Below, one piece after another: positions 11,455-47,047 of a stretch of 64,000 bases of DNA (within the stretch, counting starts at the first letter, position 1; each line of letters opens with the position of its first letter). This DNA comes from an uncultured bacterium (GTDB lineage: Bacteria > Vulcanimicrobiota > CADAWZ01), in the NCBI GenBank assembly GCA_902790465.1, contig CADASF010000005.1, positions 70,039 through 134,038 of the forward strand. Direction: 5' to 3'. The notes beneath the pieces are model-generated. The model was not told where the DNA came from, searched no databases, and saw only the letters and a list, made by a program, of their open reading frames with translations. A program made the translations under genes and the position numbers.

Positions 11455-11456
11455 GC

Positions 11457-19312: not shown

Positions 19313-19336
19313 TTTTATTCTCTAAACTATAACAAT

Positions 19337-19536
19337 AAAAAGGGGCTGTGAAAAAAATATTTTTTTCACAGCCTTTTTTTTATATAATCTTCGTAAATTA
19401 ACTCGTTGTGCTAAATGCAAAAAAACAAGTAAATAAAAGTTGCTATAAACTATCCAATATATGCCTGTATACTGCCACTTTGTCATTGCGAGGGAGCTGT
19501 GCGACCGTGGCATTTACTTTTTTCACAGCCCCTTTT
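19337..19536. repeat. MITE-like element, full-length copy C (about 200 bp). Its terminal inverted repeats (AAAGGGGCTGTGAAAAAA) double as the terminator hairpin of the GAF gene.
   Basis: Left hairpin at 19344-19373. Internal core is identical to copies A and B. The right end, ttttttcacagcccc, is the reverse complement of the left end. Confidence 0.65.
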
Positions 19537-23181: not shown

Positions 23182-23889
23182 ATGAATAAACCAAAAATTT
23201 TAGTCGTTGATGATGAAAGCTCTATTGTAGAGTTCATAGAGATAAATTTAAAGCGTTCAAATTTTGATGTATTGAAGGCTTATACTGGAACAGAAGGTCT
23301 TTTGGTACTTGAAGCTGAAAAACCAGATTTGATGGTACTTGATTTGATGATGCCAGATATGAGTGGATTTGATGTCTGCAAAAAAGCAAGGCTGTTTTCT
23401 GAGGTTCCAATAATAATACTTACAGCAAAAGGCGATGACTATGATAAAATAGTTGGTCTTGAATCAGGGGCAGATGACTACATGGTAAAGCCTTTCAATC
23501 CTTGGGAATTGATTGCAAGAATTCAAGCCATACTCAGAAGGGTTTCTAAAAAAGTAAAAACTGATGAGAAAGAAGAATCTCTTGTTTTTGGAAATATGAA
23601 AATAGATTCTCTTGGAAGAAAAGTTTGGAAAGATGATAAATTGATTGAATTGACACCGAGAGAATATGATCTTTTGATGTTGTTTTCAAGCAATCCAGGA
23701 AAGAGTTTTTCAAGAGAAGAAGTTAGAAAGGCCATTTGGGGTCATGAATTCATTGAAGAGAGAAGTATTGATGTCCATGTAAGGCGTCTCAGAGATAAAA
23801 TAGAAGATAAACCAGAAGCCCCTTCAATGATTCTTACTATTTGGGGAGTAGGTTATAAATCAAACCCTGAAATATTTGGAAAAAAATAG
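23182..23889 (+). CDS. OmpR-family DNA-binding response regulator
   Basis: Receiver D-D-K residues (LVVDDE ... DLMMPD ... K). Winged-helix C-terminus. Confidence 0.9.
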   Translation: MNKPKILVVDDESSIVEFIEINLKRSNFDVLKAYTGTEGLLVLEAEKPDLMVLDLMMPDMSGFDVCKKARLFSEVPIIILTAKGDDYDKIVGLESGADDYMVKPFNPWELIARIQAILRRVSKKVKTDEKEESLVFGNMKIDSLGRKVWKDDKLIELTPREYDLLMLFSSNPGKSFSREEVRKAIWGHEFIEERSIDVHVRRLRDKIEDKPEAPSMILTIWGVGYKSNPEIFGKK

Positions 23890-25341
23890 ATGAATAAAAT
23901 ATTTAATTTTTTTCGAAATATGAGATGGAAACTCTTTTTGAGTTATTTTATTCTTGTCCTTTTTAATATATCTCTTTTGGGTTTCCTCTTTTATTTATTT
24001 ACAATGGGACATTTTATGTCAACAAGAGAATCATATCTTGAAACAGCTTCTGATTATTTTGTCAAATTTGTAACAGCAAATATGGAAAATGATGGACAGC
24101 TTATCGGAACATCAAAATTTTTTCTCAGACAAAATTGGGAAAAAATGGATTATGAACTCATTGTTTATGATAGGTCTAATCTAATTATAGCGGATTCTCG
24201 TTCACTTGATGAACAGATGGGAATTTTTTCAATGAATTCCAAGGGAGATGAAAAAATATTATCTGTTTTAAAGACTGGACGTCCTTTGTGTTGGAAGATA
24301 AAAAAAGACAGTTCTAATTTTATTTATTATGCTTGTCCTATTTTTTTTGAAACCAAAATTATTGGTGCAGTAAAAATAGGGATGACAACAGATGATTTTA
24401 ATGCTTTATTTGACATATTTAAAGATTACTTTCTTATAACTTTTATTCTGTCATTGATAGCTGCTTTGGGGCTTGCATTTATATTTGTAAGAAATATAAT
24501 GAAACCTGTCATGAAAATAAGAGATATTGCCTCAGAAATTTCACAGGGTAAATTTGAAAGCAGAGTAAATTATGATGCTATGGATGAATTGGGAGACCTA
24601 AGCAGAACGATAAATAAAATGGCAGAAGATTTAAATAAATTGGAAGAGACAAGAAATTTATTTCTTGCAAATATCTCCCATGAATTGAAAACTCCTCTTA
24701 CTATTATAAAAGGATTTGCACTGACAATGGAAGGCGATCCAGAAATAAGAGAAGATCAAAAGCATTTTCTTGAAACAATAAATAAAGAAGCAGATAGACT
24801 TACAAGGCTTGTAAATGAACTCCTTGAGTTAAGCAGATTGAAAACCAAGAAAACAGTTATGAAAATTGCTCCTTTTGATGTAAAAGAAATAATTGAAGAT
24901 GTTGTTTTCAATATGCAGACTAAGGCAGATAAATTTAACTGCACTATTTCTTGTTCATGTCCTGATAAACTTCCGCTTGTTCCTATCGATCCTGATAAAA
25001 TACATGAAGTTTTTATAAACTTGATTGACAATGCAATAAAATATTCACAAGGACATAAAGAAAAGCCTGAAGTAAAAGTTTTTGTTGAGACAACAGAAAA
25101 AGAACTCGTTGTAAAAGTCAGTGATAATGGTCCTGGAATACCACAAGCAGATTTGGATTTGATTTTTGAGAAATTCTTTAGGAGTGGAAGTAGATCGCAA
25201 AAAATCGAAGGTGTCGGTCTTGGGCTTTCAATCGTAAAAGAAATTGTAAATGCACATAATGGAAAAATATATGCCGAAAGCACAGAAGGTCAAGGCTGTA
25301 CTTTCGTAGTCAAATTGCCGTTACAACAACCCAAAAAGTAA
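23890..25341 (+). CDS. Sensor histidine kinase (2 TM, HAMP, HisKA, HATPase_c)
   Basis: H-box ISHELKTPLT. N, G1 and G2 boxes (DNAIKYS, DNGPGIP, GVGLGLSIV). Confidence 0.9.
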   Translation: MNKIFNFFRNMRWKLFLSYFILVLFNISLLGFLFYLFTMGHFMSTRESYLETASDYFVKFVTANMENDGQLIGTSKFFLRQNWEKMDYELIVYDRSNLIIADSRSLDEQMGIFSMNSKGDEKILSVLKTGRPLCWKIKKDSSNFIYYACPIFFETKIIGAVKIGMTTDDFNALFDIFKDYFLITFILSLIAALGLAFIFVRNIMKPVMKIRDIASEISQGKFESRVNYDAMDELGDLSRTINKMAEDLNKLEETRNLFLANISHELKTPLTIIKGFALTMEGDPEIREDQKHFLETINKEADRLTRLVNELLELSRLKTKKTVMKIAPFDVKEIIEDVVFNMQTKADKFNCTISCSCPDKLPLVPIDPDKIHEVFINLIDNAIKYSQGHKEKPEVKVFVETTEKELVVKVSDNGPGIPQADLDLIFEKFFRSGSRSQKIEGVGLGLSIVKEIVNAHNGKIYAESTEGQGCTFVVKLPLQQPKK

Positions 25342-25352
25342 CATCAAAAAAT

Positions 25353-25410
25353 GGGCTGTGAAAAAAGTAAATAGAATAGATGTCATTGTATCTAGCAACT
25401 TTTTATTTAC
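25353..25410. repeat. MITE-like element, internally deleted copy D (inverted), directly after the HK stop at the boundary of the module array
   Basis: gggctgtgaaaaaagtaaat is the reverse complement of 19511-19530. agcaactttttatttac is the reverse complement of 19431-19447. Confidence 0.55.
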
Positions 25411-25444
25411 ATACTTTTTTGCACATACACTATTATTATAAACG

Positions 25445-25483
25445 AACCTCGGTGCTTGAAATGATTTTCAACACCGAGGTTTT
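25445..25483. terminator. Conserved-loop hairpin H1 (CCTCGGTG-cttgaaatgattttcaa-CACCGAGG)
   Basis: Perfect inverted repeat with a flanking T run. One of 5 related copies. Confidence 0.7.
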
Positions 25484-25485
25484 AG

Positions 25486-26187
25486 TTATTTTTCACGCAT
25501 TGGCTTACAGACCAATTTATTATTTCTTGCCTCTTTATTTATAGTTCCAGAGGCATCTTTATAAATTTCTGGAATAAAAAAATATTTTGTGTTGTGAGCA
25601 TCTATTGTCATTCTGTGAGAATCCATTATTTTACGGATATTCTCAGGTAATTGATCAAAATGTATGGGATTTGTTGGATTATTTATCTTTTTATAATGAT
25701 AAGGATGATTTTTAAAATCACTTCTATCTATATTTTCTTCTTTTACTTTTAAGGTGCGGACTTGTAAACCTTGTTTTTTATTGTGTCGTTTAGTTTTTTT
25801 CTTAAATTCGATTCTATCAATATCCAAAGGTTTTATTTCTTCATAATATTCATCAATAAAAAAATAACAAAAAATATTATTTTCTTCAATCTCTACCGCA
25901 GAAAACTCACCTTGAAGAACAAATTTTGAAAAATAATCATATAAAATTTCTGACTCTGTATAGCTTTTTATGACAAATTCTGGAACATGCCAACTGTTAG
26001 TTGTACAACAAAAAATATACCCAAATTTATCTATTGCAAACCACCTAGAACCAATAACAGAGAGTTCTCCAGGTGTGATCCTATCTGTATGTGCTTCTAA
26101 TTTTGAAGCTCTATAAGTTTCATCTGGTAAATTCTCTGATGTATCTATTTCACTAAATCCATTACTCTTATTTTTCTTTTTAGTCAT
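25486..26187 (-). CDS. Partner/putative immunity protein ImmA
   Basis: 233 aa. WFAIDKFGYIFCCTT and HPYHYKK..IHFDQLPENIRKIMDSHRM motifs. RBS GAGAGG. Confidence 0.6.
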   Translation of the reverse strand: MTKKKNKSNGFSEIDTSENLPDETYRASKLEAHTDRITPGELSVIGSRWFAIDKFGYIFCCTTNSWHVPEFVIKSYTESEILYDYFSKFVLQGEFSAVEIEENNIFCYFFIDEYYEEIKPLDIDRIEFKKKTKRHNKKQGLQVRTLKVKEENIDRSDFKNHPYHYKKINNPTNPIHFDQLPENIRKIMDSHRMTIDAHNTKYFFIPEIYKDASGTINKEARNNKLVCKPMREK

Positions 26188-26311
26188 TTAAACCTCTCAA
26201 AAAAATATTAAAATATATTTTTCAAGAAAATATATATAATACCTTTGCATAAAAAAATAACTTGCTTTTATACAAAACAAGCTATTTTTTATGGTAAAAA
26301 TCAATAAATTT

Positions 26312-27001
26312 TTAAATATTTATAGGAATTTTAGTAGTACATTCACTTTCTCTTTTTAGAAGATGGGGAATATTTTGAAACATTCTTCGGCAAGTAGAAC
26401 AATATGGAGTATATCCCAATTTACCTTCCTCTTTATAACGAAATGCTATTGTCAATCTGATATCTCTAATATCACTACCCATATTTAAAAGAGCATTTAC
26501 TGCTCTAAATTCTGCACAACACCCTACTCTACTATTTGTACCGTCAATATATTCATTTATCTTACCTACATTTTTAGCAAGGTCTTTTACGATTTTATTA
26601 GTTCTTGGATATAAAGTTTTATGAATAAGTCTTGGAGGATAAGAATCTGAGACATCTACTTTTATATATCCTTTTTTTATATCATAGGCACCTACAAAAA
26701 CTTTTTTCTTTACTTTGTCTCCAATAAGACTTTTTACCTCATAGTAAAGTTTTCTTATTTGCTTAAAAATAATCTGCTCGTAAAACTTATTTTCGTTCCG
26801 TTCAAGTAAACATTCATACTCTGAATAAGTATATGCAGATATTTTACCTTCCACATATGCCTTAGATAAATAATCTAATATCCTATATTCATATTTTTTT
26901 ACGATATTTTCAATATCCATATTTACTTCAGGTAAATAATCAAAATCATCATACCCTGAATTGTCAAAATTTTCAAAATCATAAAAATCAAAATCGTTCA
27001 T
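26312..27001 (-). CDS. Deaminase-fold (CDA-like zinc motif) protein DeamA, putative toxin/effector
   Basis: GCCAEFRAVNALL ... TPYCSTCRRMF resembles CAER(x)A(I/V)...PCxxC of tetrameric cytidine deaminases. Confidence 0.6.
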   Translation of the reverse strand: MNDFDFYDFENFDNSGYDDFDYLPEVNMDIENIVKKYEYRILDYLSKAYVEGKISAYTYSEYECLLERNENKFYEQIIFKQIRKLYYEVKSLIGDKVKKKVFVGAYDIKKGYIKVDVSDSYPPRLIHKTLYPRTNKIVKDLAKNVGKINEYIDGTNSRVGCCAEFRAVNALLNMGSDIRDIRLTIAFRYKEEGKLGYTPYCSTCRRMFQNIPHLLKRESECTTKIPINI

Positions 27002-27090
27002 TTTAACTTTACCTGACTTTCAAAATATTCAAAAAGCGCTTTTCGTTAATGTGATTATATCAAAATAAAATAATAATGTCGTTGTCTAAA

Positions 27091-27109
27091 AGTTGCAAAA
27101 AAGTTGCAT
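27091..27109. promoter_or_regulatory. Direct-repeat operator-like motif AGTTGCAAAAAAGTTGCAT in a divergent promoter region
   Basis: The same AGTTGYA-N4/5-AGTTGCA motif is found at 29120-29149, 32100-32119, 33472-33502 and 36096-36114. Confidence 0.5.
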
Positions 27110-27168
27110 AAGGTAGTATTTTGTTTGTGTGAATTAATGATTTTACAAAATTTACAAACTGTGATATA

Positions 27169-27807
27169 ATGCAAATTGCGTATAAATCACAAAAATATTT
27201 TATTAAAGAGGTTGTAATAATGTCTGTTAGTAGAGTGAAAACTTATATTGCTGCGGATTGGGATCATGATAAGGATTTTATAAAAATATTAAAAAAAATA
27301 TTAAAAGAAATTATGTTAGAAGAAAATTCTAAAGGTAAAGATTTAAAAAAATATTTTACCGATATACATGAAAAAATACAGATAAGTGATAACAATCCTT
27401 ATTGTATCATAAAAAAATCTTTAGATAAAAGACTTAAGATGTCAAAAGTATTCATTTTAATTGTTGGAAAACATACAAATAAGCTAAAAAAGGGAATATG
27501 TAGCTTTTGCAAACATTATAATAAAAAAAGAAAGACATGCTCTATTGGCAATGATGTTGATAAGCGGAGTTATATAAAATATGAATGTTATGAAGCTATT
27601 GACAAGGAGTTAAAAATAATCGTAATTTATAAAAATTATGATGTAGATAGAAAGAAATGTCCTAAAATTTTGAGAGAGGAAGGAACTCATATTCCTGCTT
27701 ATACTTTAACAAAAAAATCCACTCAATCAATTAAAATAGATAAGAACAAATTTTTAAATTTTCCTGAAATTGTAACTGAAATAGTGGGAGCATTGTACAC
27801 AGATTAA
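27169..27807 (+). CDS. Conserved Cys-rich hypothetical protein, copy 1 (TIR-like/flavodoxin-like fold suspected)
   Basis: VKTYIAADWDHDKD N-terminal strand plus acidic loop. Cys cluster PYC..GICSFC..KTC..YEC..KKC. About 85% identical to copies at 32221 and 36175. Start possibly at 27220. Confidence 0.5.
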   Translation: MQIAYKSQKYFIKEVVIMSVSRVKTYIAADWDHDKDFIKILKKILKEIMLEENSKGKDLKKYFTDIHEKIQISDNNPYCIIKKSLDKRLKMSKVFILIVGKHTNKLKKGICSFCKHYNKKRKTCSIGNDVDKRSYIKYECYEAIDKELKIIVIYKNYDVDRKKCPKILREEGTHIPAYTLTKKSTQSIKIDKNKFLNFPEIVTEIVGALYTD

Positions 27808-27809
27808 TA

Positions 27810-27968
27810 TACAGAGGTCAAGTCATTCCAAAAGATGACTTGGTAACAGTCAGAGTTTGGGTAACCTCAAAATCAAATGATGACAAAACGATAATTTGTG
27901 ACGGTTGGTTGTCAGTAGATGGTCGAAATATCTACAAATTCTCCAACTTCGCACTAAAGATGATGTAA
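27810..27968 (+). pseudogene. FabA/FabZ-like (hotdog) C-terminal gene fragment
   Basis: ...TIICDGWLSVDGRNIYKFSNFALKMM* resembles the FabA C-terminus ...[23 protein letters not shown]. A degraded second copy is at 36790-36967. Confidence 0.35.
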
Positions 27969-28039
27969 CAGCTTATTAGTAAATAAAAAAGGCTCAGTAC
28001 TGAATTAATATCACTGAGCCTTTTTGGGGATTGGTTACT

Positions 28040-28516
28040 TTAATCTATTTTAATATTTCCTGACCAACTCTCACAAAACTCTTTATAAGCCTGATCAACA
28101 TTCATATAAACATCATGAAAAACATCTATGTCTACTCTGTGTGAGTTCATAATTTCTTGAATATTTTTTGGAAGTTGATTAAAATTCAAAGGATTTTTTG
28201 GAGAAAATTTTACAGATTTCTTATACCAATATGGATATTTAATAAAATCCTCACTTTTTGGGATTGTTTCAACTATGGCATCAAAATAGAATAAGCCTTT
28301 GCTTGCAAGAACTTCGTCGTTATCAAAATCGTCTTCATCTATTCCCAAAGTTGTGAAAAAATATTTTTCTAAAAATTCTGTTTCTTCCTTGCTTTTACAT
28401 ACAAATTCTGGAACTTTATGACTTCCTGCAGTTGTACAAGCAAAAAGAAAACCATTTTTATCAGTGCCGAACCAAAGTATGTCTTCTGTCAGAACTTCAC
28501 CTTTAGTAATTCTCAT
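28040..28516 (-). CDS. Partner/putative immunity protein ImmB
   Basis: 158 aa with family motifs WFGTDKNGFLFACTTAGSHKVPEF and YPYWYKK..LNFNQLPKNIQEIMNSHR. 4-nt gap to DeamB. RBS AAGGAGG. Confidence 0.6.
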   Translation of the reverse strand: MRITKGEVLTEDILWFGTDKNGFLFACTTAGSHKVPEFVCKSKEETEFLEKYFFTTLGIDEDDFDNDEVLASKGLFYFDAIVETIPKSEDFIKYPYWYKKSVKFSPKNPLNFNQLPKNIQEIMNSHRVDIDVFHDVYMNVDQAYKEFCESWSGNIKID

Positions 28517-28520
28517 GTTT

Positions 28521-29036
28521 TTAATCCTCCTTATCTAATATATCCTTAAACATATATTTACAATTAGGACAATAAGGTACTAATAATAATCCTTCTTTTC
28601 GAAATCTATATGCTTTAGTTAACATAAACTCTCCCATAGAATAACCTTTTTTCAACATTTTATTAACTAAACGAAATTCAGCACATTTTCCAACAATATT
28701 TTCATGTTTAGCAGGATCATTAGTAGGATTAGAAGTAAGACCAGTAGAACCTATTCCACCAATATCTTTTGCTAAGTTCACTAAATATTCGTCAATATCT
28801 TCTGGAAAATCTCCTGAATAATCAACATCAAAATTTCCAATTTTATCATAGCAACCAACATATGCTCCCTTTTTTTTATGTATTTTCATTATTCTTTTTA
28901 TTTCTTCTAAAGCATTGTTTTTAGCTACTTTACAGTTAAAATCAATATCTTCATTTTCATAGTCTTCAATTATATAGCCAGTATTCCTAAGTTCAAACCA
29001 TCTTGCTTCTATGATATGTCTAATACCTTCTAACAT
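28521..29036 (-). CDS. Deaminase-fold protein DeamB
   Basis: GKCAEFRLVNKMLKKG ... VPYCPNCKYMF. RBS AAAGGAG. Confidence 0.6.
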   Translation of the reverse strand: MLEGIRHIIEARWFELRNTGYIIEDYENEDIDFNCKVAKNNALEEIKRIMKIHKKKGAYVGCYDKIGNFDVDYSGDFPEDIDEYLVNLAKDIGGIGSTGLTSNPTNDPAKHENIVGKCAEFRLVNKMLKKGYSMGEFMLTKAYRFRKEGLLLVPYCPNCKYMFKDILDKED

Positions 29037-29069
29037 AATAAACTCCTTTAAATATGGTTTAATTATTTA

Positions 29070-29083
29070 AAAGAGCGCTCTTT
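29070..29083. promoter_or_regulatory. Leader palindrome AAAGAGCGCTCTTT just downstream of the TGATATAAT -10 box of DeamB (minus strand)
   Basis: Perfect 14-bp palindrome. Analogous palindromes at 27030-27045, 32038-32053 and 36034-36049. Confidence 0.5.
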
Positions 29084-29480
29084 ATTGAGATTAATTATAT
29101 CATAGCAAAATAAATTTGTAGTTGTTGTAATAGTTGCAAAAAGTTGCATTTAAAATTTTAGAATCTTGACAAATTATGTTATAATATTAATTGTGTAATA
29201 TTTCACAAATATTTTTTAAAGAAGAAAACAATGTTTATGTTTTTAATTTTTACTCTTGCATGTTTTATTAAAAAATTGAAAGAAAACTGTAATGTAAAAA
29301 AAAGTAATGAAGATTTCATTCGGGATTTTTTTACACAAATTTTTAAAGATATATCTTTAGATGATATAAAAGTTAGAAAAAAAGAAGAAAGATTTTAATA
29401 ATAAAAACGATGTTTTTATTTTAGGATTATATTTAGATAAATCTACAATTAGCAAATTACGAAATAATAAAATAAATATT

Positions 29481-30509
29481 TTGAAAGACCTAAAAAATAA
29501 AATATTTGATAAAAATAATAAGGATAAGATAAGTTTAAATATGGATGAATTTATTAAAGATAACATGGAATTAGCATCAATAGATAATTTAATTGAGAAA
29601 TTAAAATCTGCAATTTTAGAAGTAAAATTAACTGAAACAGAAAAAGAAAGTATTAAAAATTTTAAAATAGAAAAATATGAAGAGAAAATAAATTTTATAT
29701 ATGAAGCATTTAGAATTGCTTTAAACAAAGATAATAAACTAAAAGAAAATTCTAATTCTTTAATTTGGAAAAGAGGAAACGCTTTAGTAAATGCAATAAC
29801 TGGAGATATATTTAGCTATGGATTTAATAAAAGAAGTGAAGAGAAAAATATTGTTGTAATTCCAGTAGATACATCTTTTGAAACTCATATTACAACAAAA
29901 TTAGAAAAAGAAAAATATCCACTTGTTTCTGAAAATACAATTCACGGACAATTTCTTTCAAGAATGTACAAAACTACAGTCAAAAAAAATCCACCCCCAA
30001 AAAATGATATAGAAAGTAAGCGTAAAAGACATTATACTGAAGAAGATATTAAAAATTCAATAGAAGAATCCTTAACACTCCAAGGAATTAAGCCTTTAGG
30101 AAATAATTCTAAAAATAATCCTCTTTATCCAATTGGAACAATTGCTGTTATTGGTCATGATCTTGATACTATTGACACTATTTTTTATCTTTTAGCAATA
30201 TCACAATTTGATGAAAATAATAACGCTCAAAGCAATGAAAACAATATAAAAATAGCTATAGAAAATCTTTTAGATTTTTATAATAACAAGGGGCAAGAAT
30301 ATTCTCTATACTTGCCATTAATAGGTACAGGATTATCACGAGTTAATTTCACTAATAAGGAATCACTCGAATTTATTTTATCCACTATGATGGAAAATAA
30401 AGATAAAATACATGGAAAAATAAATATTGTTATTTCAAAAACAATACAACAACAGGAATTAGAAGAATTATATAAAGTTATTTCTGAATGGAAGAATAAA
30501 TATAAATAA
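29481..30509 (+). CDS. Macro-domain-like protein, copy 1 (apparently N-terminally disrupted relative to copy 2)
   Basis: NIVVIPVDTSFETH and LYLPLIGTGLSRV resemble macro motifs (IVNAANssL / AFPAISTGiyG). TTG start. The N-terminal homology is carried by a separate 55-aa ORF at 29232-29399. Confidence 0.4.
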   Translation: MKDLKNKIFDKNNKDKISLNMDEFIKDNMELASIDNLIEKLKSAILEVKLTETEKESIKNFKIEKYEEKINFIYEAFRIALNKDNKLKENSNSLIWKRGNALVNAITGDIFSYGFNKRSEEKNIVVIPVDTSFETHITTKLEKEKYPLVSENTIHGQFLSRMYKTTVKKNPPPKNDIESKRKRHYTEEDIKNSIEESLTLQGIKPLGNNSKNNPLYPIGTIAVIGHDLDTIDTIFYLLAISQFDENNNAQSNENNIKIAIENLLDFYNNKGQEYSLYLPLIGTGLSRVNFTNKESLEFILSTMMENKDKIHGKINIVISKTIQQQELEELYKVISEWKNKYK

Positions 30510-30514
30510 AGTAA

Positions 30515-30553
30515 AAACCTCGGTGCTGAAATGATTTTCAACACCGAGGTTTT
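30515..30553. terminator. Conserved-loop hairpin H2
   Basis: aaaacctcggtg ctgaaatgattttcaa caccgaggtttt. Confidence 0.7.
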
Positions 30554-30556
30554 TAC

Positions 30557-31261
30557 TTATCTTTCACGCATTGGCTTACAGACCAATTTATTATTTCGTG
30601 CCTCTTTATTTATAGTTCCAGATACATCTTTATAAATTTCTGGTATAAAAAAATATTTTGTATTGTGAGCATCTATTGTCATTCTGTGAGAATCCATTAT
30701 TTTGCGGATATTCTCAGGAAGTTGATCAAAATGTATGGGATTTGTCGGATTATTTATTTTTTTATAATGATAAGGATGATTTTTAAAATCACTTCTATCA
30801 ATATTTTCTTCTTTTAATTTTGAGACACGGACTTGTAAACCTTGTTTTTTATTATGTCGTTTCGTTTTTTTCTTAAATTCACTTCTATCAGTATCTAATG
30901 ATTTTATAAATTCAAAATAATATTCATCAATCAATTCATAACAAAAAATATTATTTTCTTCAATCTCTACCTCAGAGAACTCACCTTGAAGAACAAATTT
31001 TGAAAAATAATCATATAAAATTTCTGACTCTGTATAGCTTTTTATAAAAAAAACAGGAACATGCCAAGTTTTAGTATAACAACAAACAATATAACCAAAT
31101 TTATCTATAGCAAACCACATAGAGCCAAAAATAGTGAGTTCTCTTGGTGTTATTCTATCTGTATTTGCTTCTAATTTTGAAACTCTATAAGCTTCATCTT
31201 GTAAATTCTCTGATGTATCTATTTCACTAAATACATTGTTCTTATTTTTTTTCTTACTCAT
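30557..31261 (-). CDS. Partner/putative immunity protein ImmA' (about 88% identical to ImmA)
   Basis: 234 aa; same motifs as ImmA. Confidence 0.6.
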   Translation of the reverse strand: MSKKKNKNNVFSEIDTSENLQDEAYRVSKLEANTDRITPRELTIFGSMWFAIDKFGYIVCCYTKTWHVPVFFIKSYTESEILYDYFSKFVLQGEFSEVEIEENNIFCYELIDEYYFEFIKSLDTDRSEFKKKTKRHNKKQGLQVRVSKLKEENIDRSDFKNHPYHYKKINNPTNPIHFDQLPENIRKIMDSHRMTIDAHNTKYFFIPEIYKDVSGTINKEARNNKLVCKPMRER

Positions 31262-31341
31262 TTAACTCTCCTCTAAATAAGGAATAGCATATAATTTTCC
31301 ACACAATATATGCTATTCCCTGTTTTTATTCTATTTAGTTA

Positions 31342-32007
31342 TTAAAGTTCTATTTCTGTATCAGTACATTCACTTTCTCTTTTTAGGAGATGTGGATATT
31401 CTTGAAACATTTTCTGACAATTTTTACAATATGAAATAGCCACTAACTTACCGCTATCATACTGAAATGGTCTTGTGAATCTGATATCTTTAATATTACT
31501 ACCCATATTTAAAAGACCATTTATTGCTCTAAATTCTGCACAACAAGCAACAACATTGCTTCCTTGAATATGCTCATTTATCTTACCAACTTTTTTAGAA
31601 AGATCTTTTAAAATCTTATTAATTCTTGGACGAGCTTGTTCAATTTTATTAATTCTTGGAGGATAAGAATCTGAGCAATCTACTTTTATATATCCCTTTT
31701 TTTTATCATAAGCCCCTATATAAGCTTTTTTATTAGCTTCCTTACTTCCTTCAATATCCTTTACTTCCTTGTAAAGTTTTCTTATTTTTCCAAAAATAAT
31801 CTGCTCGTAAAACCTATTTTCGTCTCGTTCAAGTAAACATTCATACTTTGAATAAGTATATGCAGATATTTTACCTTCCATATATGCCTTAGATAAATCA
31901 TCTAATATCCTATATTCAAATTTTTTTACAATATTTTCAATATCCATACAGGCAGGTAAAGGTTCTAAATCCCAATACCCTGAATTGTCAAAATTAAAGT
32001 TTTCCAC
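31342..32007 (-). CDS. Deaminase-fold protein DeamA' (about 65-70% identical to DeamA)
   Basis: ACCAEFRAINGLLNMG ... SYCKNCQKMF. Start reassigned to the GTG at 32007, preceded by the GGAGGTGAAATTAAA leader identical to DeamC. The ORF-track TTG at 32040 lies inside the leader palindrome. Confidence 0.55.
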   Translation of the reverse strand: MENFNFDNSGYWDLEPLPACMDIENIVKKFEYRILDDLSKAYMEGKISAYTYSKYECLLERDENRFYEQIIFGKIRKLYKEVKDIEGSKEANKKAYIGAYDKKKGYIKVDCSDSYPPRINKIEQARPRINKILKDLSKKVGKINEHIQGSNVVACCAEFRAINGLLNMGSNIKDIRFTRPFQYDSGKLVAISYCKNCQKMFQEYPHLLKRESECTDTEIEL

Positions 32008-32220
32008 TTTAATTTCACCTCCATTTTTTAAAATATTCAAAGAGCACTCTTTGTTGAAATTATTATATCAAAGTAAAATAAATCCGTCGTTGTCTAAGAA
32101 GTTGTAAAATAGTTGCATAAGGTTGTATTTTTTGCGTTAGTTAATGATTTTACAAAATAATTGTGATATAATGCAAATTGCGTATAAATTACAAAAATAT
32201 AATTAAAGGGGGGGGGAATA

Positions 32221-32808
32221 ATGTCTGCTCGTAGAGTGAAAACTTATATTGCTGGTGATTGGGATCATGATAAGGATTTGATAGATATATTAAAAAATAT
32301 ATTAAAAGAAATTATGTTAGAAGAAAATTCTAATGGTAAAGATTTAAAATCATATTTTACCGATATACATGAGAAAATACAAATAAGTGATAACAACCCT
32401 TATTGTATTATAAAAAAATCTTTAGATGAAAGATTTGAATTGTCAAAACTATTTATTTTAATTGTTGGCGAACATACAAATAAACTAACAAAGGGAATAT
32501 GTAGTTTTTGCAAAGATTATAATAAACATAATAAGACTTGTTCTCTTAATAATAAAATTGACAAAAAAAGTTATATAAAATATGAATGTGATAAAGCTTT
32601 TGAAAATGACTTAAAAATCATTGTAATTTATAAAGATTATAATGTTGAGGAAAAAAAATGTCCTGAAATTTTGAGAGAGGAAGGAACTCATATTCCTGCT
32701 TATACTTTAACAAAAAAATCCCCTCAATCAATTAAAATAGATAAGGACAAATTTTTAAATTTTCCTGAAATTGTAACTGAAATAGTGGGAGCATTGTACA
32801 CAGATTGA
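32221..32808 (+). CDS. Conserved Cys-rich hypothetical protein, copy 2 (TIR-like?)
   Basis: MSARRVKTYIAGDWDHDKD. Promoter ttgtgatataatgc (extended -10) 45 nt upstream. Confidence 0.5.
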   Translation: MSARRVKTYIAGDWDHDKDLIDILKNILKEIMLEENSNGKDLKSYFTDIHEKIQISDNNPYCIIKKSLDERFELSKLFILIVGEHTNKLTKGICSFCKDYNKHNKTCSLNNKIDKKSYIKYECDKAFENDLKIIVIYKDYNVEEKKCPEILREEGTHIPAYTLTKKSPQSIKIDKDKFLNFPEIVTEIVGALYTD

Positions 32809-32848
32809 TAAAAATGGTGCTGTGATCAATAAATTCCCCCCATTTTTG

Positions 32849-33245
32849 AAAACAGTCATGAAGATAAGAGATATTGCCTCTGAAATTTCTCTTGGTAAAT
32901 TTGAAAGTAGATTTAATTATGAGGTCATGGACGAATTAGAATGCCATAAAATATTCACAAGGACATAAAGAAAAGCCAGAAGTCAAAGTAAATGTTGAAT
33001 TAGCAGAGAAAGAACTTATTGTAAAAGTAAGTGATAATGGACCAGGTATTCCACAAGCTGATTTGGATTTGATTTTTGAAAAGTTCTTTAGAAGTGGAAG
33101 TAGATCGCAAAAAATTGAAGGTGTAGGTCTTGGTCTTTCAATAGTTAAGGAAATTGTAAATGCTCATGACGGCAAAATATATGCAGAAAGTCCAGAGGGG
33201 CAAGGTTGCACTTTCGTAGTCAAACTGCCACTAAAGGCAAAATAA
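32849..33245 (+). pseudogene. Truncated duplicate of the 3' end of the histidine-kinase gene (internal deletion)
   Basis: ...KTVMKIRDIASEISLGKFESRFNYEVMDEL joined to ...KYSQGHKEKPEVKVNVELAEKELIVKVSDNGPGIPQADLDLIFEKFFRSGSRSQKIEGVGLGLSIVKEIVNAHDGKIYAESPEGQGCTFVVKLPL. Corresponds to HK residues about 205-235 and 375-483. Confidence 0.85.
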
Positions 33246-33260
33246 ATCTTTTGGAAAACT

Positions 33261-33300
33261 AAAAACCTCGGTGAAAAGTAATTTCCACCGAGGTTTTTTT
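33261..33300. terminator. Conserved-stem hairpin H3 (variant loop)
   Basis: aaaaacctcggtg aaaagtaatttc caccgaggttttttt. Confidence 0.7.
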
Positions 33301-33599
33301 GTGAGTAAATCTTTCTTAAAAGCTAAATTCTATGATGTTGCTTTAAATTTTTTAAAATTTTCTATAGGGTGTTTTGGTAAAGTGTTTTTGCATATTTAAA
33401 ATTTGCTATAAACTATCTGTATATTACCATTTTATCTTGGCTAGGCTAATTAGTAGTTTAAAACACACTTTAGTTGTAGAAAAAGTTGCAAAAAACTTGC
33501 ATTTTGTTTTTTATGATTCTACAATATTTACAAAATTTCCAAATTGTGCAATAATTCAAATAGTGTACTATTACACAATTATTTTTTAGGAGGAAAAAA

Positions 33600-34844
33600 A
33601 TGTTCATTTTTTATACTTTTGCATGTTTCATTAGAAGTTTAATGGATAATTGGAATGTACAACCATACCAAGAAAAAATTATAAATAGCTTATTTAAAGC
33701 ATATATAGGGGATAAGAATTATAATGATTCATATTATTTACAGCCAGAAACAGTTAGTAAAGTTATGAAGAATAGTATAAACCTTCCAAATTTTGTAAAA
33801 GGAATAACTTCTGATGAAGACTATGATACAAAAATTTATTCTGCTATGTATAATTTTATTTTAGAAAATATTAATTCAATAGATAATTTAATTGATGAAT
33901 TAAAATCTGCTATTTTAGAAGCAGAAAATTTAAGTGAAACAGAAAAAGAAACTATTAAAAATTTAAAAACAGAAAAAAAAGAAGATAAAATAAATTTCAT
34001 ATGTGAAGCATTTAGAATTGCTTTAAAAAATGATAATAAACTAAAGATAGACCATAATTTAATTTGGAGAGGAAAAAATTCAGTAAATGCAATAATTGGA
34101 GATTTATTTAGCTATGGATTTAATAAAAGAAGAGAATGCAAAAATATTGTTGTAATTCCAGTTGATACATCTTTTGAAACCCATATTACAACAAAATTAG
34201 AAAAAGAAAAATATCCACTTGTTTCTGAAAAAACAATTCACGGAAAATTTCTTTCAAGGATGTATAAAATTACTGTAAAAAAAGAACCTCTACTAAAAAA
34301 TGATACGGAAAGTAAGCGTAAGAGATGTTATACTGAAGAAGGTATTAAAAATTTAATAGAAAACAACTTAAAAGAACAAGGAATCGAGCCTTCAGGAAAT
34401 AATTCTAAAAATAAGCCTCTATATCCAATTGGAACAATTGCTGTTATTTATCATCTTAATACCATTTTTTATCTTTTAGCTATATCAGAATTTGATGAAA
34501 ATAATAATGCTCAAAGTAATGAAAAAAATATAAAAATAGCAATAGAAAATCTTTTGGAATTTTATGATAAAAAAGGGCAAGGGTATTCTTTGTATCTGCC
34601 ATTAATAGGAACAGGATTATCACGAGTTCGTTCATCATCTGAAAAAATATCCAAAATGTCCCCCTCAATAGTTTGTTTATCTCCTAAAGAATCCTTTGAA
34701 TGTATTTTATCTACAATTATGGAAAAAACAGATAAGATATTAGGAGAAATAAATATTGTTATTTGGAAAGAAATACACCCAGAGCATTTGGAAGAGATAA
34801 ATTTATTTTTGAATACACTCAGAAAATCTGAAAAATTAAAATAA
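33600..34844 (+). CDS. Macro-domain-like protein, copy 2 (full length, 414 aa)
   Basis: NIVVIPVDTSFETHITT and LYLPLIGTGLSRV. About 75% identical to copy 1 with two indels. Confidence 0.45.
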   Translation: MFIFYTFACFIRSLMDNWNVQPYQEKIINSLFKAYIGDKNYNDSYYLQPETVSKVMKNSINLPNFVKGITSDEDYDTKIYSAMYNFILENINSIDNLIDELKSAILEAENLSETEKETIKNLKTEKKEDKINFICEAFRIALKNDNKLKIDHNLIWRGKNSVNAIIGDLFSYGFNKRRECKNIVVIPVDTSFETHITTKLEKEKYPLVSEKTIHGKFLSRMYKITVKKEPLLKNDTESKRKRCYTEEGIKNLIENNLKEQGIEPSGNNSKNKPLYPIGTIAVIYHLNTIFYLLAISEFDENNNAQSNEKNIKIAIENLLEFYDKKGQGYSLYLPLIGTGLSRVRSSSEKISKMSPSIVCLSPKESFECILSTIMEKTDKILGEINIVIWKEIHPEHLEEINLFLNTLRKSEKLK

Positions 34845-34865
34845 TCAATCAATAATTTATTATAA

Positions 34866-34908
34866 ACAAACCTCGGTGCTGAAATGATTTTCAACAACGA
34901 GGTTTTTA
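34866..34908. terminator. Conserved-loop hairpin H4 (one stem mismatch)
   Basis: aaacctcggtg ctgaaatgattttcaa caacgaggttttt. Confidence 0.65.
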
Positions 34909-34928
34909 GTTAAAATAATATTATGATT

Positions 34929-35414
34929 TTACTCTTTATAAATAGGTGGAACAAAAAAATATTTTATTTGGCGAGAATCAATTTGAATTTTATGATAATT
35001 CATTATATTTTGAATATTTTTAGGAAGTTGATTAAAATGTAAAGGTTTTTTGGGGAATGTAAGTTTTTTATACCAATAGGGATGAATCTCAAAATCTTTT
35101 TCATTATCTATTGTCTCATATTTAATGATAGAATCAAAAGAACTAATGCCTCTATCTAAAAGAATGACATCTTCCTCACCTATTAAATCATAGTCTAATT
35201 CATAAGAAAATTTTTCTATTTTTATATCTAAATTTGAAAATTCAGAACTAAATAAAAAAAAATTTTCTAAAACGCAAGTATTTTCTTGGCTTTTACATAC
35301 AAATTCTGGAACATTAAATGTTCCTGCGGATGTACAAGAAAAAACATAGCCATTTTTATCAATAGCAAACCATCTAATATCATTACAGAAAAGGTCTTCT
35401 TCGCTAAATCTCAT
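34929..35414 (-). CDS. Partner/putative immunity protein ImmC
   Basis: 161 aa. WFAIDKNGYVFSCTSAGTFNVPEF and HPYWYKK..LHFNQLPKNIQNIMNYHK. 5-nt gap to DeamC. RBS AAGGAGG. Confidence 0.6.
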   Translation of the reverse strand: MRFSEEDLFCNDIRWFAIDKNGYVFSCTSAGTFNVPEFVCKSQENTCVLENFFLFSSEFSNLDIKIEKFSYELDYDLIGEEDVILLDRGISSFDSIIKYETIDNEKDFEIHPYWYKKLTFPKKPLHFNQLPKNIQNIMNYHKIQIDSRQIKYFFVPPIYKE

Positions 35415-35419
35415 CTTTA

Positions 35420-36001
35420 TTAATCCTCCTTTAGTATTTCCATTCCTTCAAACATTTTTAAGCAATTGGGACAATATGGCACTATATCCCAACCCCAATT
35501 TTTTATTCTAACTGCTTTAATTAATCTAATTGCTTCTATATTACTACCTTGCCATAGCAATTTATTGACTACATGGAATTCAGCACATCTACCAACTTTA
35601 TTAAAAGTATTTTTTTCTCCTGTAATTTTTAATTCTTTTTCAATTTTATTAGAAGTATCTGTTTCTTCTTTCCTTGTAATTTTTAATCCTTTATCTTTCA
35701 TAATTTTTTTTAATTCGTCATGAATATCTTTGTCTGCGGGTGGACTTCTTGAATAATCTGCACAAGCATTTCCAGTATCTATATCATATCCTCCAATATA
35801 AACAGCAGGATTTTCATATTTCATTTTTATTCCATTTTTTCTATTATTTTCTCTTATTTTTTTAAAATCATCTATTTTCTTGTTTATTTCTTCTTCAGCT
35901 TTTTTTTCGTATGTTGCATTTTCTGTTCGTTCTTGTATATATATATTGTCATAATTTTTATATAAAAGTATTGGGTATTTAAAATGTTTGAAATATTTCA
36001 T
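35420..36001 (-). CDS. Deaminase-fold protein DeamC
   Basis: GRCAEFHVVNKLLWQG ... VPYCPNCLKMF. RBS GGAGGTG 8 nt upstream. Confidence 0.6.
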   Translation of the reverse strand: MKYFKHFKYPILLYKNYDNIYIQERTENATYEKKAEEEINKKIDDFKKIRENNRKNGIKMKYENPAVYIGGYDIDTGNACADYSRSPPADKDIHDELKKIMKDKGLKITRKEETDTSNKIEKELKITGEKNTFNKVGRCAEFHVVNKLLWQGSNIEAIRLIKAVRIKNWGWDIVPYCPNCLKMFEGMEILKED

Positions 36002-36174
36002 TTTAATTTCACCTCCAATTTTTTTTTAATATTCAAAAAGCACTTTTCGTTGATGTTATTATATCAAAGTAAAATAAATCCGTCGTTGTCTAAGAAGTTG
36101 TAAAATAGTTGCATAAGGTTGTATTTTTTGCGTTAGTTAATGATTTTACAAAATAAATTGTGATATAATGCAAA

Positions 36175-36786
36175 TTGCGTATAAATTACAAAAATATAAT
36201 TAAAGGGGTTGTAAAAATGATTGTTGATAGAATAAAAACTTATATAGCTGGAGATTGGGATAACGATAAGGATTTTATAAAAATATTAAAAAAAATATTA
36301 AAAGGAATTATTTTAGAAGAAAATTATAAAGGTAAAGATTTTAAAAAAAAATTTACCGATATACATGAAAAAATACAGATAAGTGATGACAACCCTTATT
36401 GTATTATAAAAAAATCTTTAGATGAAAGATTTGAACGATCAAAACTATTTATTTTAATTGTTGGAAAACATACAAATAAGCTAAAAAAGGGAATATGTAG
36501 TTTTTGCAAACATTATAATAAAAAAAGAAAGACATGCTCTATTGATAATGATGTTGATAAGCGGAGCTATATAAAATATGAATGTGATAAAGCTTTTGAA
36601 AATGACTTAAAAATAATCGTAATTTATAAAGATTATAAGGTAGAAAGAAAAAAATGTCCTAAAATTTTGAGAGAGGAAGGAACTCATATTCCTGCTTATA
36701 CTTTAACAAAAAAATCCCCTCAATCAATTAAAATAGATAAGAACAAATTTTTAAATTTTCCTGAAATTGTAGCTGAAATAGCGTGA
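36175..36786 (+). CDS. Conserved Cys-rich hypothetical protein, copy 3 (TIR-like?). Premature stop relative to copies 1 and 2.
   Basis: MIVDRIKTYIAGDWDNDKD. Ends ...EIVAEIA*, 5 codons earlier than the other copies. Start probably at 36217. Confidence 0.45.
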   Translation: MRINYKNIIKGVVKMIVDRIKTYIAGDWDNDKDFIKILKKILKGIILEENYKGKDFKKKFTDIHEKIQISDDNPYCIIKKSLDERFERSKLFILIVGKHTNKLKKGICSFCKHYNKKRKTCSIDNDVDKRSYIKYECDKAFENDLKIIVIYKDYKVERKKCPKILREEGTHIPAYTLTKKSPQSIKIDKNKFLNFPEIVAEIA

Positions 36787-36789
36787 GCA

Positions 36790-36967
36790 TTGTACACAGA
36801 TTGATATACAGAGGTCAAGTCATTCCAAAAGATGACTTGGTAACAGTCAGAGTTTGGGTAACCTCAAAATCAAATGATGACAAAGTAATTATCTGTGACG
36901 GCTAGCTTTCTGTTGATAGCAGAAACATCTACAAATTCTCCAACTTTGCACTAAAAATGATGTAAAT
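36790..36967 (+). pseudogene. Degraded second copy of the FabA/FabZ-like fragment
   Basis: About 90% nucleotide identity to 27808-27968, with frame-disrupting indels. Confidence 0.3.
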
Positions 36968-36987
36968 GCGTGAAAGATAAACAACAA

Positions 36988-37024
36988 AAAAACTCGGTGC
37001 TGATACCAAACACCGAGTTTTTTT
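36988..37024. terminator. Hairpin H5 (CTCGGTG stem variant) between the module array and the phosphoesterase gene
   Basis: aaaaactcggtg ctgataccaaa caccgagttttttt. Confidence 0.65.
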
Positions 37025-37035
37025 GTTTTTGATTC

Positions 37036-37929
37036 TTATATTTCAATTGTATATGGATTGACACCTTCAGGACTAAAGCTCATATTTACGCATTTTATTC
37101 TGCCTTTTACGAGTTCTTGTCTTTCATGGATATGTCCCCAAAGTGCAAGACAGACTTTTGGATGTCTATATAAAACTTCACCTAAATATTTACTTCCTGC
37201 CCAAGCATTTCTTACACAAGCCACAGCTGTTGCATTTTTTCTTATAAGACCTTCTTTAAATGGAACACAATGGAAAACTGCTACTATTTTTCTTGCATTT
37301 CCTTCTATAGAAGCTATGTCATCTTCGAGTTTTTCCTTCATTTGATCACAGAATATTACATCATCTGGAAAACCTTTTATATAATCAATGTCATTAGTTC
37401 CTGTCTGCTCAATACTAAAGAGGGTTTTTATTTTGACATATCCTCTTTTCCAATCTGCCTGTGTCATTTGAGCCCAACTTACTACTTGTTTTGTCTCTTG
37501 CAAATTATCATCAAGCCTTATGAATTTAGTTCCAAAAGGTGGTGAATAAGTTCTGACAAAAGTATAGTCAAACCAACCTATATTTCCTGCAAAACCAACA
37601 TCTTTATATAATAAAGGTTGTTTTTCAAGGGAATAAAAGCCATATTTTTCATATATTGCTGGAAGTACATTTTGTAATCTATTTAGAGATGTTTCTGTGC
37701 TGTTTTTATCTGCAATCCATAGATCATGGTTACCAGAAACATACATTTTTAGACCACGAAAATTTGATATAGATGCTAAAAAATCTTCTAAGGCAGCATC
37801 ATTGGCAGGAGCAATATCTCCTCCTAAAATAAGAACTTCTGCATCACTTTTATTTATTGCGTCAACCATTTGAGGCAATCTTGCATTGTTCTTTGGGATA
37901 TGAATATCTGAAACAGCTATTATTTTCAT
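37036..37929 (-). CDS. Calcineurin-like metallophosphoesterase
   Basis: Metal-binding motifs DIH...GDI...GNHD...GHIH. Confidence 0.8.
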   Translation of the reverse strand: MKIIAVSDIHIPKNNARLPQMVDAINKSDAEVLILGGDIAPANDAALEDFLASISNFRGLKMYVSGNHDLWIADKNSTETSLNRLQNVLPAIYEKYGFYSLEKQPLLYKDVGFAGNIGWFDYTFVRTYSPPFGTKFIRLDDNLQETKQVVSWAQMTQADWKRGYVKIKTLFSIEQTGTNDIDYIKGFPDDVIFCDQMKEKLEDDIASIEGNARKIVAVFHCVPFKEGLIRKNATAVACVRNAWAGSKYLGEVLYRHPKVCLALWGHIHERQELVKGRIKCVNMSFSPEGVNPYTIEI

Positions 37930-45018: not shown

Positions 45019-45738
45019 ATGATAAATAAAGTTAAAACAGCTGTTTTATTGTCAGCAGGTTTGGGAACACGAATGAGACCTATTACAAATTCTATCCCCA
45101 AGCCACTTGTAAAAGTAAATAATAAATCACTTATAGAAACAGTTATTGATTCTCTTATATTCTATGGTGTTGAAAATATCTATATTGTTACAGGATATTT
45201 GGCAGATAAATTTTCATTTCTTGAAAAAAAATACAATGGCAAATGTGAGATACATTTTGTTCATAACAAGGATTATGAGACAAAAAACAATATATCTTCA
45301 CTTTATGTAGTTAAAGATTTAATAAAAGATAATTGTTTTATATGTGAAGCCGACCTTTTTATACCTGATGAAAAATTATTTTCAACTTTAAATATAAATC
45401 GTTCTTGTTATTTTGGAAATTTTGTAGAAGGTCATTCTGATGATTGGGCTTTTGTCTGCGATTCTGATAAAAAAATAACTAAGATCGCAATAGGTGGAGA
45501 TAATCTTTTTAATATGGTTGGAATTTCTGTTTGGTCAAAAGAAGATTTTCTACAAATAGGAAATAGGGTAGGGGAGATGATGAATGAACCAAATGGAGAT
45601 AGTAGATTTTGGGATGAAGCTGTTGACGATATATTAAATAAAATATCTGTACATGTTCTTCCTATTGAAAATGGTCAAATAATAGAAATTGACACTGTAG
45701 AAGAATTGGAAAGGGTCAGAAAAAATTATGAAAAATAA
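45019..45738 (+). CDS. LicC/PntC-like sugar-phosphate (or phosphonate) nucleotidyltransferase
   Basis: N-terminal LLSAGLGTRMRPIT..PKPLV nucleotidyltransferase signature. Confidence 0.7.
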   Translation: MINKVKTAVLLSAGLGTRMRPITNSIPKPLVKVNNKSLIETVIDSLIFYGVENIYIVTGYLADKFSFLEKKYNGKCEIHFVHNKDYETKNNISSLYVVKDLIKDNCFICEADLFIPDEKLFSTLNINRSCYFGNFVEGHSDDWAFVCDSDKKITKIAIGGDNLFNMVGISVWSKEDFLQIGNRVGEMMNEPNGDSRFWDEAVDDILNKISVHVLPIENGQIIEIDTVEELERVRKNYEK

Positions 45739-47035: not shown

Positions 47036-47047
47036 AGGTTATTAAAA

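Follow-up and report, generated by a model that had tools for sequence, protein, structure and literature searches.

A second histidine kinase sequence within an accessory gene array

The DNA analysed here, referred to as the window, is a stretch of 64 kb from an uncultured bacterium of the Vulcanimicrobiota (contig CADASF010000005.1, positions 70,039 to 134,038). On its + strand it carries an intact histidine kinase (HK) gene, HK_W (23890-25341; 483 amino acids with HAMP, HisKA and HATPase_c domains by Pfam), which is the 3' gene of a core block encoding a GGDEF protein, a response regulator (RR) and the HK; the OmpR-type RR gene upstream of HK_W (23182-23889) is intact as well. The window contains HK sequence a second time, in partial form, 7.5 kb downstream of the intact gene and within an accessory island of 11.6 kb (25350-36982), also called the array. 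The island fills the space between the HK stop and the native terminator common to HK and the Metallophos gene of the right core flank (37036-37929, - strand), which is followed by MetRS, tRNAs, EF-Tu, SecE, NusG, L11 and L1. It encodes three ThsB (TIR) and two ThsA (Macro) proteins of the Thoeris type as well as four toxin/immunity-like gene pairs, and its GC content is 25-29%, compared with 30-36% in the flanks. The partial HK sequence, termed the scar in the following, is most probably a xenologous 3' remnant of an HK gene from a sister lineage, which together with its own terminator (32847-33310) was left behind by recombination at a defence hotspot.

The scar consists of two segments on the + strand. 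In a blastn comparison, 32847-32937 aligned with HK positions 24500-24590 at 84.6% identity (E 5e-24) and 32940-33229 with 25030-25319 at 86.2% (E 9e-97), values far beyond chance, so that the truncated HK copy reported at this site in an earlier note on the same DNA is real. Segment 1 (32847-32937) corresponds to HK nucleotides 611-701, that is, residues 204-234 of the HAMP domain. Segment 2 (32940-33245) runs from HK nucleotide 1141 to the stop codon and covers residues 381-477, the C-terminal part of HATPase_c, followed by a C-terminal tail unlike that of HK_W. The earlier note had placed the two parts at residues of about 205-235 and 375-483 and had given a nucleotide identity to the resident HK of about 90%, which measures 85-86%.

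Between the two segments, at the junction 32938-32939 (+ strand), 439 bp corresponding to HK nucleotides 702-1140 are missing. As this length does not correspond to whole codons, the segments are out of frame with each other. Stops close every frame of the scar, and the sole remaining open reading frame (ORF) comprises 60 amino acids from a TTG start; the in-frame mosaic described earlier does not exist. The scar is an ordinary non-functional pseudogene fragment with no likely function of its own, although the region today possibly provides a terminator for the upstream gene ThsB2 (32221-32808, + strand). The scar begins 38 nucleotides past the ThsB2 stop, and the homology of ThsB2 to the downstream regions of ThsB1 and ThsB3 ends at 32810. 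The filler in between (32809-32846, + strand) weakly resembles 25347-25372, in the spacer downstream of HK_W; this spacer itself showed no significant similarity when compared with HK.

The scar matches the histidine kinase of a sister lineage

For the comparison with relatives we designate the lineage of the window W and a sister lineage of rumen Candidatus Xenobia, represented by contigs L001 and L020-L023, D. Two further groups are W2 (L024-L027) and W3 (L124/L125), the latter 93-95% identical to the window. A search with the HK_W protein returned orthologues at 88-92% identity, and a protein identical to HK_W was found on 10 metagenome contigs.

The scar is of D type in both segments. It is 94.5% (segment 1) and 96.9% (segment 2) identical to the D-lineage HK of L001 and L020, as against 84.6% and 86.2% to HK_W, and this similarity stands out from the remainder of the locus, where window and D share 82%, and from the flanking core genes, where they share about 82-88%. 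At the protein level, the translation of segment 2 agrees with the D-type sequences P0001 and P0245 except for a single residue, and the agreement extends to the LKAK tail before the stop: the scar and P0001 end in KLPLKAK, HK_W in KLPLQQPKK. The match to D continues past the stop codon through a 16-bp spacer, as found in L001 and L020, the hairpin and 12 further bases.

The pattern of substitutions leads to the same lineage. Scar and HK_W differ at 57 nucleotide positions. Third codon positions account for 43 of these, and the comparison yields a synonymous divergence (dS) of 0.92, a nonsynonymous divergence (dN) of 0.051 and a dN/dS ratio of 0.055. A pseudogene copied locally and then decaying is expected to approach a dN/dS of at least 0.5. 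Orthologues of W and D differ by dS values of 0.93 (RR), 1.06 (HK), 0.80 (Metallophos) and 0.65 (MetRS), and scar and D-lineage HK by 0.146. Since the dS between scar and HK_W lies within the W-D orthologue range (0.65-1.06) and the scar matches D, the scar is a xenologue from a sister species-level lineage. The dS between scar and HK_W also exceeds that of the array paralogues (A1/A2, B1/B2, ThsB1-3 and ThsA1/2; dS 0.13-0.34, dN/dS 0.26-0.66) by a factor of 3-7. These paralogues are much younger and less constrained than the scar-HK_W pair, and yet are no recent copies themselves.

The deletion allele is present in D-lineage DNA

The internal deletion of the scar recurs in a D-type genomic context. 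Contigs L018 and L019, assembled from one bovine rumen run by two pipelines (MEGAHIT and Logan, respectively), carry D-type GGDEF and RR genes and a complete HK 5' end, which then runs into the deletion junction and displays the same F/V substitutions as the scar. Segment 1 is 96.7% identical to this allele in L018. In addition, protein P0256, a cluster member of P0001, is a D-type HK N-terminus that ends in FESRFNYEVMDELECHKIFTRT directly before a stop, exactly as the scar reads across its junction. The junction sequence GACGAATTAGAATGCC is identical in the scar, L018/L019 and P0256. Judged from these sequences, one single deletion event is common to the D-lineage chromosome and the scar in the W lineage. 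A scan of the JGI metagenomes for the exact junction 27-mer gave 0 matches.

Related terminator hairpins mark the cassette boundaries

The scar is followed, 16 bp past its stop, by a hairpin at 33261-33298 (-20.4 kcal/mol, z -4.75 upon folding). Together with the 12 nucleotides of D-lineage homology behind it, where the alignment to L001 runs to 33310, it forms a D-type intrinsic terminator (33261-33310). The earlier note had equated it with the hairpin after the intact HK, and with regard to the stem, CTCGGTG/CACCGAG in both, this is correct; the loop and the distance from the stop (16 bp against 105 bp) differ. The stem occurs at four exact sites and one degenerate site in 64 kb, all at this locus, where none would be expected by chance.

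Hairpin 1, the left cassette boundary, lies at 25446-25483, 105 bp past the HK_W stop, and has related copies at 30513-30554 and 34868-34924; the three fold at -23.7, -31.3 and -15.9 kcal/mol, respectively. The repeat block 25445-27809/30516-32810 begins at such a hairpin. Hairpin 5 (36983-37033) is the native terminator that serves both HK and Metallophos in the empty site described below. All five hairpins (-15.9 to -31.3 kcal/mol, z -3.9 to -10.3) are GC-rich stem-loops as in intrinsic, Rho-independent terminators, and as A/T runs are found on both sides, they can be regarded as bidirectional. Hairpins 1-4 at the cassette boundaries are related copies of the native hairpin 5.

A search of 23-38 kb against Rfam returned no RNA family, and a scan of JGI metagenomes for the stem pattern returned 25 matches, all of them unrelated: their GC content is 38-60%, and none aligned with the window in blastn. 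Within W2, the loop of the post-HK hairpin is exactly reverse-complemented between sister contigs, reading GCTGAACATAAGC in L024 (5250-5285) and L027 (10630-10666) versus GCTTATGTTCAGC in L025 (3005-3040) and L026 (1700-1735). This could stem from a flip of the palindrome or from an inversion between hairpin copies.

The array occupies a variable hotspot between conserved core genes

In the W3 contigs L124/L125 the site is empty: HK and Metallophos converge at a distance of 58 bp and share one hairpin, AAAAACACTCGGTACTGAATTAGCACCGAGTGTTTTT. Their alignment with the window breaks off after 25349 and resumes at 36983, which defines the island as 25350-36982. The backbone belongs to the W clade on both sides: over 19.5-25.3 kb and 37.0-44.0 kb, the window shares 93-95% identity with L124/L125, compared with 82-88% for D.

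Other relatives display intermediate states. Contigs L007, L009, L011 and L017 all encode a protein identical to HK_W. L007 lacks the array and retains a relic only, a truncated A gene that lies with the hairpin between HK and Metallophos, and in L009 unit 2 of the array directly follows HK, representing a partial state. The full array is present in the window, in L017 and in the related strain L011, whose 11-kb contig covers the whole array and aligns to the window in blocks of 100% identity mixed with blocks of 82-94%. The prediction that the locus is still evolving and varies in copy number is borne out by the states of L007, L009 and L011, including the mosaic identity of 82-100% between L011 and the window. 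In the D lineage (L020-L023), HK and its hairpin are followed by about 1.2 kb containing an inverted, truncated relic of an A gene and then by Metallophos. In L020 this A-family gene lies at 11380-11964 and is 88% identical to A1/A2. Its presence in the gap indicates that the D lineage once carried array material at the same hotspot.

The flanking core gene has itself recombined between lineages. In W2, which includes the GTDB representative 'Candidatus Xenobia bacterium ruminal_MAG_271', HK is a mosaic of W-type sequence at nucleotides 1-701 (97%) and D-type sequence at nucleotides 1141-1430 (93-95%). The locus thereby combines the features of a defence hotspot, namely conserved core flanks, variable occupancy including an empty site, defence cargo and a recombinant flanking gene. 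All island ORFs of at least 50 amino acids that do not overlap a longer gene encode ThsA, ThsB, B or A proteins, and searches of Pfam, PADLOC and NCBIfam revealed no integrase or transposase family among them. Integron-like, insertion sequence-mediated and tRNA-targeted insertion were considered and rejected, the island being devoid of integrase and transposase genes and the nearest tRNAs lying 3 kb beyond the right flank.

Five assemblies that are independent of each other, made from different samples in different projects, agree at 99.5-100% identity over the interval from ThsB2 through filler, scar and hairpin to ThsA2. An assembly artefact, which the earlier note had named as a possible refutation, is thereby excluded, and the identity of the scar across the five assemblies suggests a fairly recent, shared event.

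Further observations concern regions outside the hotspot. A third lineage (L002/L003/L004/L029, about 81% identity) carries behind HK an operon of the MoxR/BatA-D aerotolerance type, not Metallophos/MetRS, and no CTCGGTG hairpin after HK. A GAF-protein block (window 17181-19339 and 60107-61335, L020 1-3448) is inverted between W and D and adjoins a XerC/D-like integrase gene in D; this inversion is a chromosomal rearrangement upstream of the hotspot. Downstream of the ribosomal protein genes, 45019-48265 holds a phosphonate-type cluster encoding a nucleotidyltransferase, a phosphoenolpyruvate mutase fused to a cytidylyltransferase-like domain and a glycerophosphotransferase-like protein.

A proposed history of the scar and its alternatives

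The history that we favour starts with a W-lineage chromosome already holding array units 1 and 2, which D-lineage DNA would then have entered. The incoming DNA would have contained the damaged HK 3' end with its terminator and probably the adjoining ThsA2-A''-B''-ThsB3 module. Recombination at the right end may have been anchored in homologous array or terminator sequence, and the left end would have been joined illegitimately just past the ThsB2 stop, replacing the stretch of FabA-like fragment, A' and B' that lies between ThsB and ThsA in unit 1 and in L016. The HK piece would thus be a passenger, having entered as the hitchhiking flank of the transferred DNA.

Several observations weigh against this history. 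The 38-nucleotide filler at the left join is not accounted for by it. D homology stops at 33310, 12 nucleotides past the hairpin, so the demonstrable foreign piece amounts to 464 bp only; the alignment of L001 to the window beyond 33310 is ambiguous and gave no proof of a ThsA2 promoter after HK in the D lineage. Likewise, L018 and L019 end 30 bp past the junction, and the presence of ThsA2 and array sequence downstream in the donor is thus inferred. As both contigs originate from one run, a chimeric path through a 53-bp stretch common to D-type HK and scar is possible, which is countered by the fact that L018 is D-like on either side of the junction, before it as well as over the 53 bp that follow. 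The reverse order, in which the deletion was born in the scar of the W array and then recombined into a D genome, is also possible.

Among the alternative explanations, one exchanges the roles of resident and newcomer: the scar would be the chromosome's own old D-type HK, and a W-type GGDEF-RR-HK block plus units 1 and 2 would have been imported and displaced its 5' part. The position of the scar on the HK-distal side of units 1 and 2, with its own terminator kept, is what a displaced original 3' end would look like, and the mosaic HK genes of W2 demonstrate that such replacements occur. Both flanks, however, belong to the W clade, at 93-95% to W3 as opposed to 82-88% to D, and a W-type HK directly faces a W-type Metallophos gene in L124/L125 and L007. 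The import would moreover have to extend for more than 5 kb upstream, yet no breakpoint is visible there. We consider this reversal improbable.

We assign a similarly low probability to the idea that the hairpin copies are active recombination joints, at which cassettes are gained, lost and inverted, and that the D-type HK fragment came attached to one of them. Many homology breakpoints indeed fall at or near hairpins (25445/30516, 33310, 36983 and the switch in L009), the stem is specific to this locus, sister contigs differ in that one loop is the exact reverse complement of the other, and the D lineage carries its A relic in inverted orientation. However, the hairpins lie between convergent genes, where breakpoints would be tolerated anyway, passive co-duplication of terminators accounts for the copies, and the island encodes no recombinase. 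The left boundary of the island at 25349 and the left end of the scar at 32847 are both away from hairpins.

A recent, imprecise tandem or segmental duplication in situ, in which the 3' end of the resident HK was copied with the terminator behind it and then decayed, was the interpretation of the earlier note, according to which the array grew from the junction between HK and array. In its favour are the homology of the fragment to the HK nearby, the stem that the hairpin behind the fragment has in common with the one after the intact gene, and the clearly repeated nature of other parts of the array. It is nevertheless rejected as very improbable. The scar is 97% identical to the D-lineage HK and 86% to HK_W, its C-terminal tail and stop-to-hairpin spacing are of D type, and its deletion allele recurs in D-type surroundings. 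Neutral decay of a local copy is incompatible with a dN/dS of 0.055 when dS has reached 0.92, a divergence 3-7 times as deep as between the repeats of the array. What survives of the earlier interpretation is an involvement of the junction, given that the cassette hairpins are related to the empty-site terminator; in place of a local HK duplication, exchange between lineages has to be assumed. Least probable of all is an assembly chimera, in which reads of co-occurring D cells were mis-joined into the W array, for although D and W both live in ruminant guts, the region is rich in repeats and several contigs break at hairpins, the interval from ThsB2 to ThsA2 recurs at 99.5-100% in the five assemblies, the 11-kb contig L011 covers the whole array, and neither the 5' truncation nor the filler is present in intact D-type HK.

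The scar indicates that cassettes of anti-phage genes pass between species-level lineages of the uncultured rumen phylum Vulcanimicrobiota (Candidatus Xenobia) at a fixed chromosomal hotspot without any mobile-element machinery. It serves as a datable and directional marker of such a passage, as the retained donor flank allows the donor lineage to be named. It also cautions that a repeated gene piece near an intact copy need not have been duplicated locally: in this case, statistics on codon positions, together with a single comparison with relatives, overturned the reading made from the sequence of the window alone.

Thoeris genes and divergent toxin/immunity-like pairs in the array

The genes called Cys-rich in the earlier note encode ThsB TIR proteins (PADLOC 3.5e-46) and those called macro-like encode ThsA Macro proteins (Pfam PF20016 3e-32 and 2e-28; PADLOC 1.6e-48). 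ThsA2 (33600-34844, + strand; 414 amino acids) consists of a helical N-terminal domain and a ThsA-type Macro domain (Pfam 2e-28, PADLOC 1.6e-48). Its AlphaFold (AF2) model (pLDDT 83) was matched by Foldseek to the ThsA Macro crystal structures 8r66 and 8v6q (E 4e-8, TM-score 0.75), and shows short amphipathic helices in the N-terminal 150 residues. Hydropathy analysis detected no transmembrane helix in ThsA2, as the 19-residue maximum of 1.76 lies inside the Macro domain (2.79 for HK as a control). Macro ThsA proteins of this kind, with a soluble helical N-terminal domain of about 150 amino acids in place of transmembrane segments, were seen at 33600-34844 of the window and at 3219-4484 of L011.

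Two of the Thoeris genes are damaged, as the earlier note had recognised. ThsB3, its third Cys-rich gene, stops 6 codons early. ThsA1, its macro-like copy 1, is broken into 55 and 342 amino acids (29231-29398 and 29481-30509), also in L017, which is 99.96% identical, and is intact with 421 amino acids in the related strain L011. Array unit 1 is therefore probably defective in this strain.

A promoter and operator block was identified upstream of ThsA2 (33440-33599, + strand) by alignment and promoter scan and is common to the four other + strand Thoeris genes. Aligned copies lie at 27040-27220, 29080-29235, 32048-32225, 33440-33602 and 36044-36220 and thus precede all five genes. The block is composed of a direct repeat AGTTGCA-N4-AGTTGCA as candidate operator, a -35 element TTTACA, an extended -10 element TGTGATATAAT and a conserved 5' leader GCAAATTGCGTA. 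No gene for a regulator of the candidate operator was evident in the island.

Four pairs of B and A genes are located among the Thoeris genes on the - strand (B/A: 26312-27001/25486-26187, 28521-29036/28040-28516, 31342-32040/30557-31261 and 35420-36001/34929-35414). Profile searches of Pfam, PADLOC, NCBIfam and PDB yielded no significant match for either protein, and the B family forms only 6 clusters among 5.8 billion proteins. Across 10 sequences, the motifs CAEF and (P)YCxNC of B are invariant, corresponding to a deaminase-type zinc motif ([HC]AE ... PCxxC). A deaminase fold of B is weakly supported, with a Pfam match to YwqJ-deaminase at E 0.31 and Foldseek matches to blasticidin-S and cytidine deaminases at a TM-score of 0.4-0.5 and E of about 1.

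At an unrelated locus, L094 (5268-10019), a B homologue and a Tox-GHH nuclease protein have a common N-terminus, MSKGNSGLFKGTIGEK. Each of them follows a DUF4417 gene, an A homologue follows the B homologue only, and the operons are again interleaved with ThsB and ThsA. On account of this architecture, B and A look like toxin/immunity pairs of the polymorphic-toxin type, and their association with Thoeris is seen at both loci.

The FabA-like 3' gene fragment that the earlier note had found twice is present at 27808-27968 and 36805-36965 (+ strand). The copies are 89% identical, the second contains an internal stop, and the match to Pfam FabA (E 4.7e-6) covers profile positions 90-137 of 138. 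The window contains no intact FabA-like gene. As the fragment also lies directly 3' of ThsB in L016 (680-828), where the unrelated neighbouring genes are Dus and T2SSE, it has long travelled with the ThsB cassette and constitutes a second, older flank relic, not a product of local duplication.

The array may represent a new variant in view of its Macro ThsA without transmembrane helices, its rare toxin/immunity-like pairs and its common operator. More speculatively, the whole island could be one composite Thoeris system, in which each ThsB is divergently paired with a deaminase-type toxin/immunity operon and all units answer to one operator. The toxins would then act as the real or auxiliary effectors or as addiction modules that stabilise the array, and the cassettes would be shuffled between species via the terminator-palindrome copies, with the scar as a by-product. 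We regard this proposal as tentative and rather doubtful.

Comparison with known systems

The scar resembles scars of segmental or tandem duplication in that a truncated copy and a terminator are found a few kb from the intact gene, in repeated DNA. It differs in that its nearest relative is the orthologue of another lineage and its synonymous divergence from HK_W is as deep as the species split. Similarly, the array is like integron cassette arrays in being built of short gene cassettes with an imperfect palindrome at the end of each, and in its interspersed toxin-antitoxin-like pairs. Unlike these, it has no integron integrase, attI or Pc, its genes are found in both orientations, and its palindromes are strong GC-stem terminators with A/T tracts. 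The only tyrosine recombinase of the window, encoded by a XerC/D-like gene, is 23 kb away from the array.

Type II Thoeris combines a ThsB TIR sensor with a TM-Macro ThsA effector (PMC11204291; bioRxiv 10.1101/2024.01.03.573942), and Thoeris loci with multiple ThsB genes are known. TIR ThsB and Macro ThsA proteins are likewise encoded here. Signalling by histidine-ADP-ribose and phage defence also belong to type II Thoeris and would be expected of a member. The ThsA N-terminal domain, however, is soluble and helical without pore-type transmembrane helices, and every one of the Thoeris genes, two for ThsA and three for ThsB, has a toxin/immunity-like operon as its divergent partner.

In homology-facilitated illegitimate recombination, reportedly described by de Vries and Wackernagel in 2002 and by Prudhomme et al. 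in 2002 for the uptake of foreign DNA, one end is said to be anchored by homology and the other joined illegitimately, so that non-homologous donor sequence stays behind. The donor flank fragment that abuts the ThsB2 stop via a short filler would fit such an event; here the mechanism is inferred only, with neither the position of the anchor nor microhomology at the join demonstrable.

The closest parallel is provided by core-gene defence hotspots driven by recombination (PMC5635113; Johnson et al. 2023, PMC10250203; for E. coli islands Hochhauser et al. 2023, PMC10121019). In common with these, variable defence content lies between conserved core genes, relatives exhibit empty, partial and full states, the island encodes no integrase or transposase, and recombination has also affected the core gene at its flank in one of the lineages. 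A pseudogene at a hotspot is of a known kind. New are the explicit relic of a donor flanking gene inside the island, where a clean double crossover would give a mosaic flank, the scale of the exchange, with a donor from another species-level lineage (dS of about 0.9), and the host, an uncultured rumen Xenobia. Diversification of hotspots by recombination at flanking core genes has been proposed (PMC5635113), and the proposed history of the island fits this model, with a second crossover that would have been illegitimate in this case.

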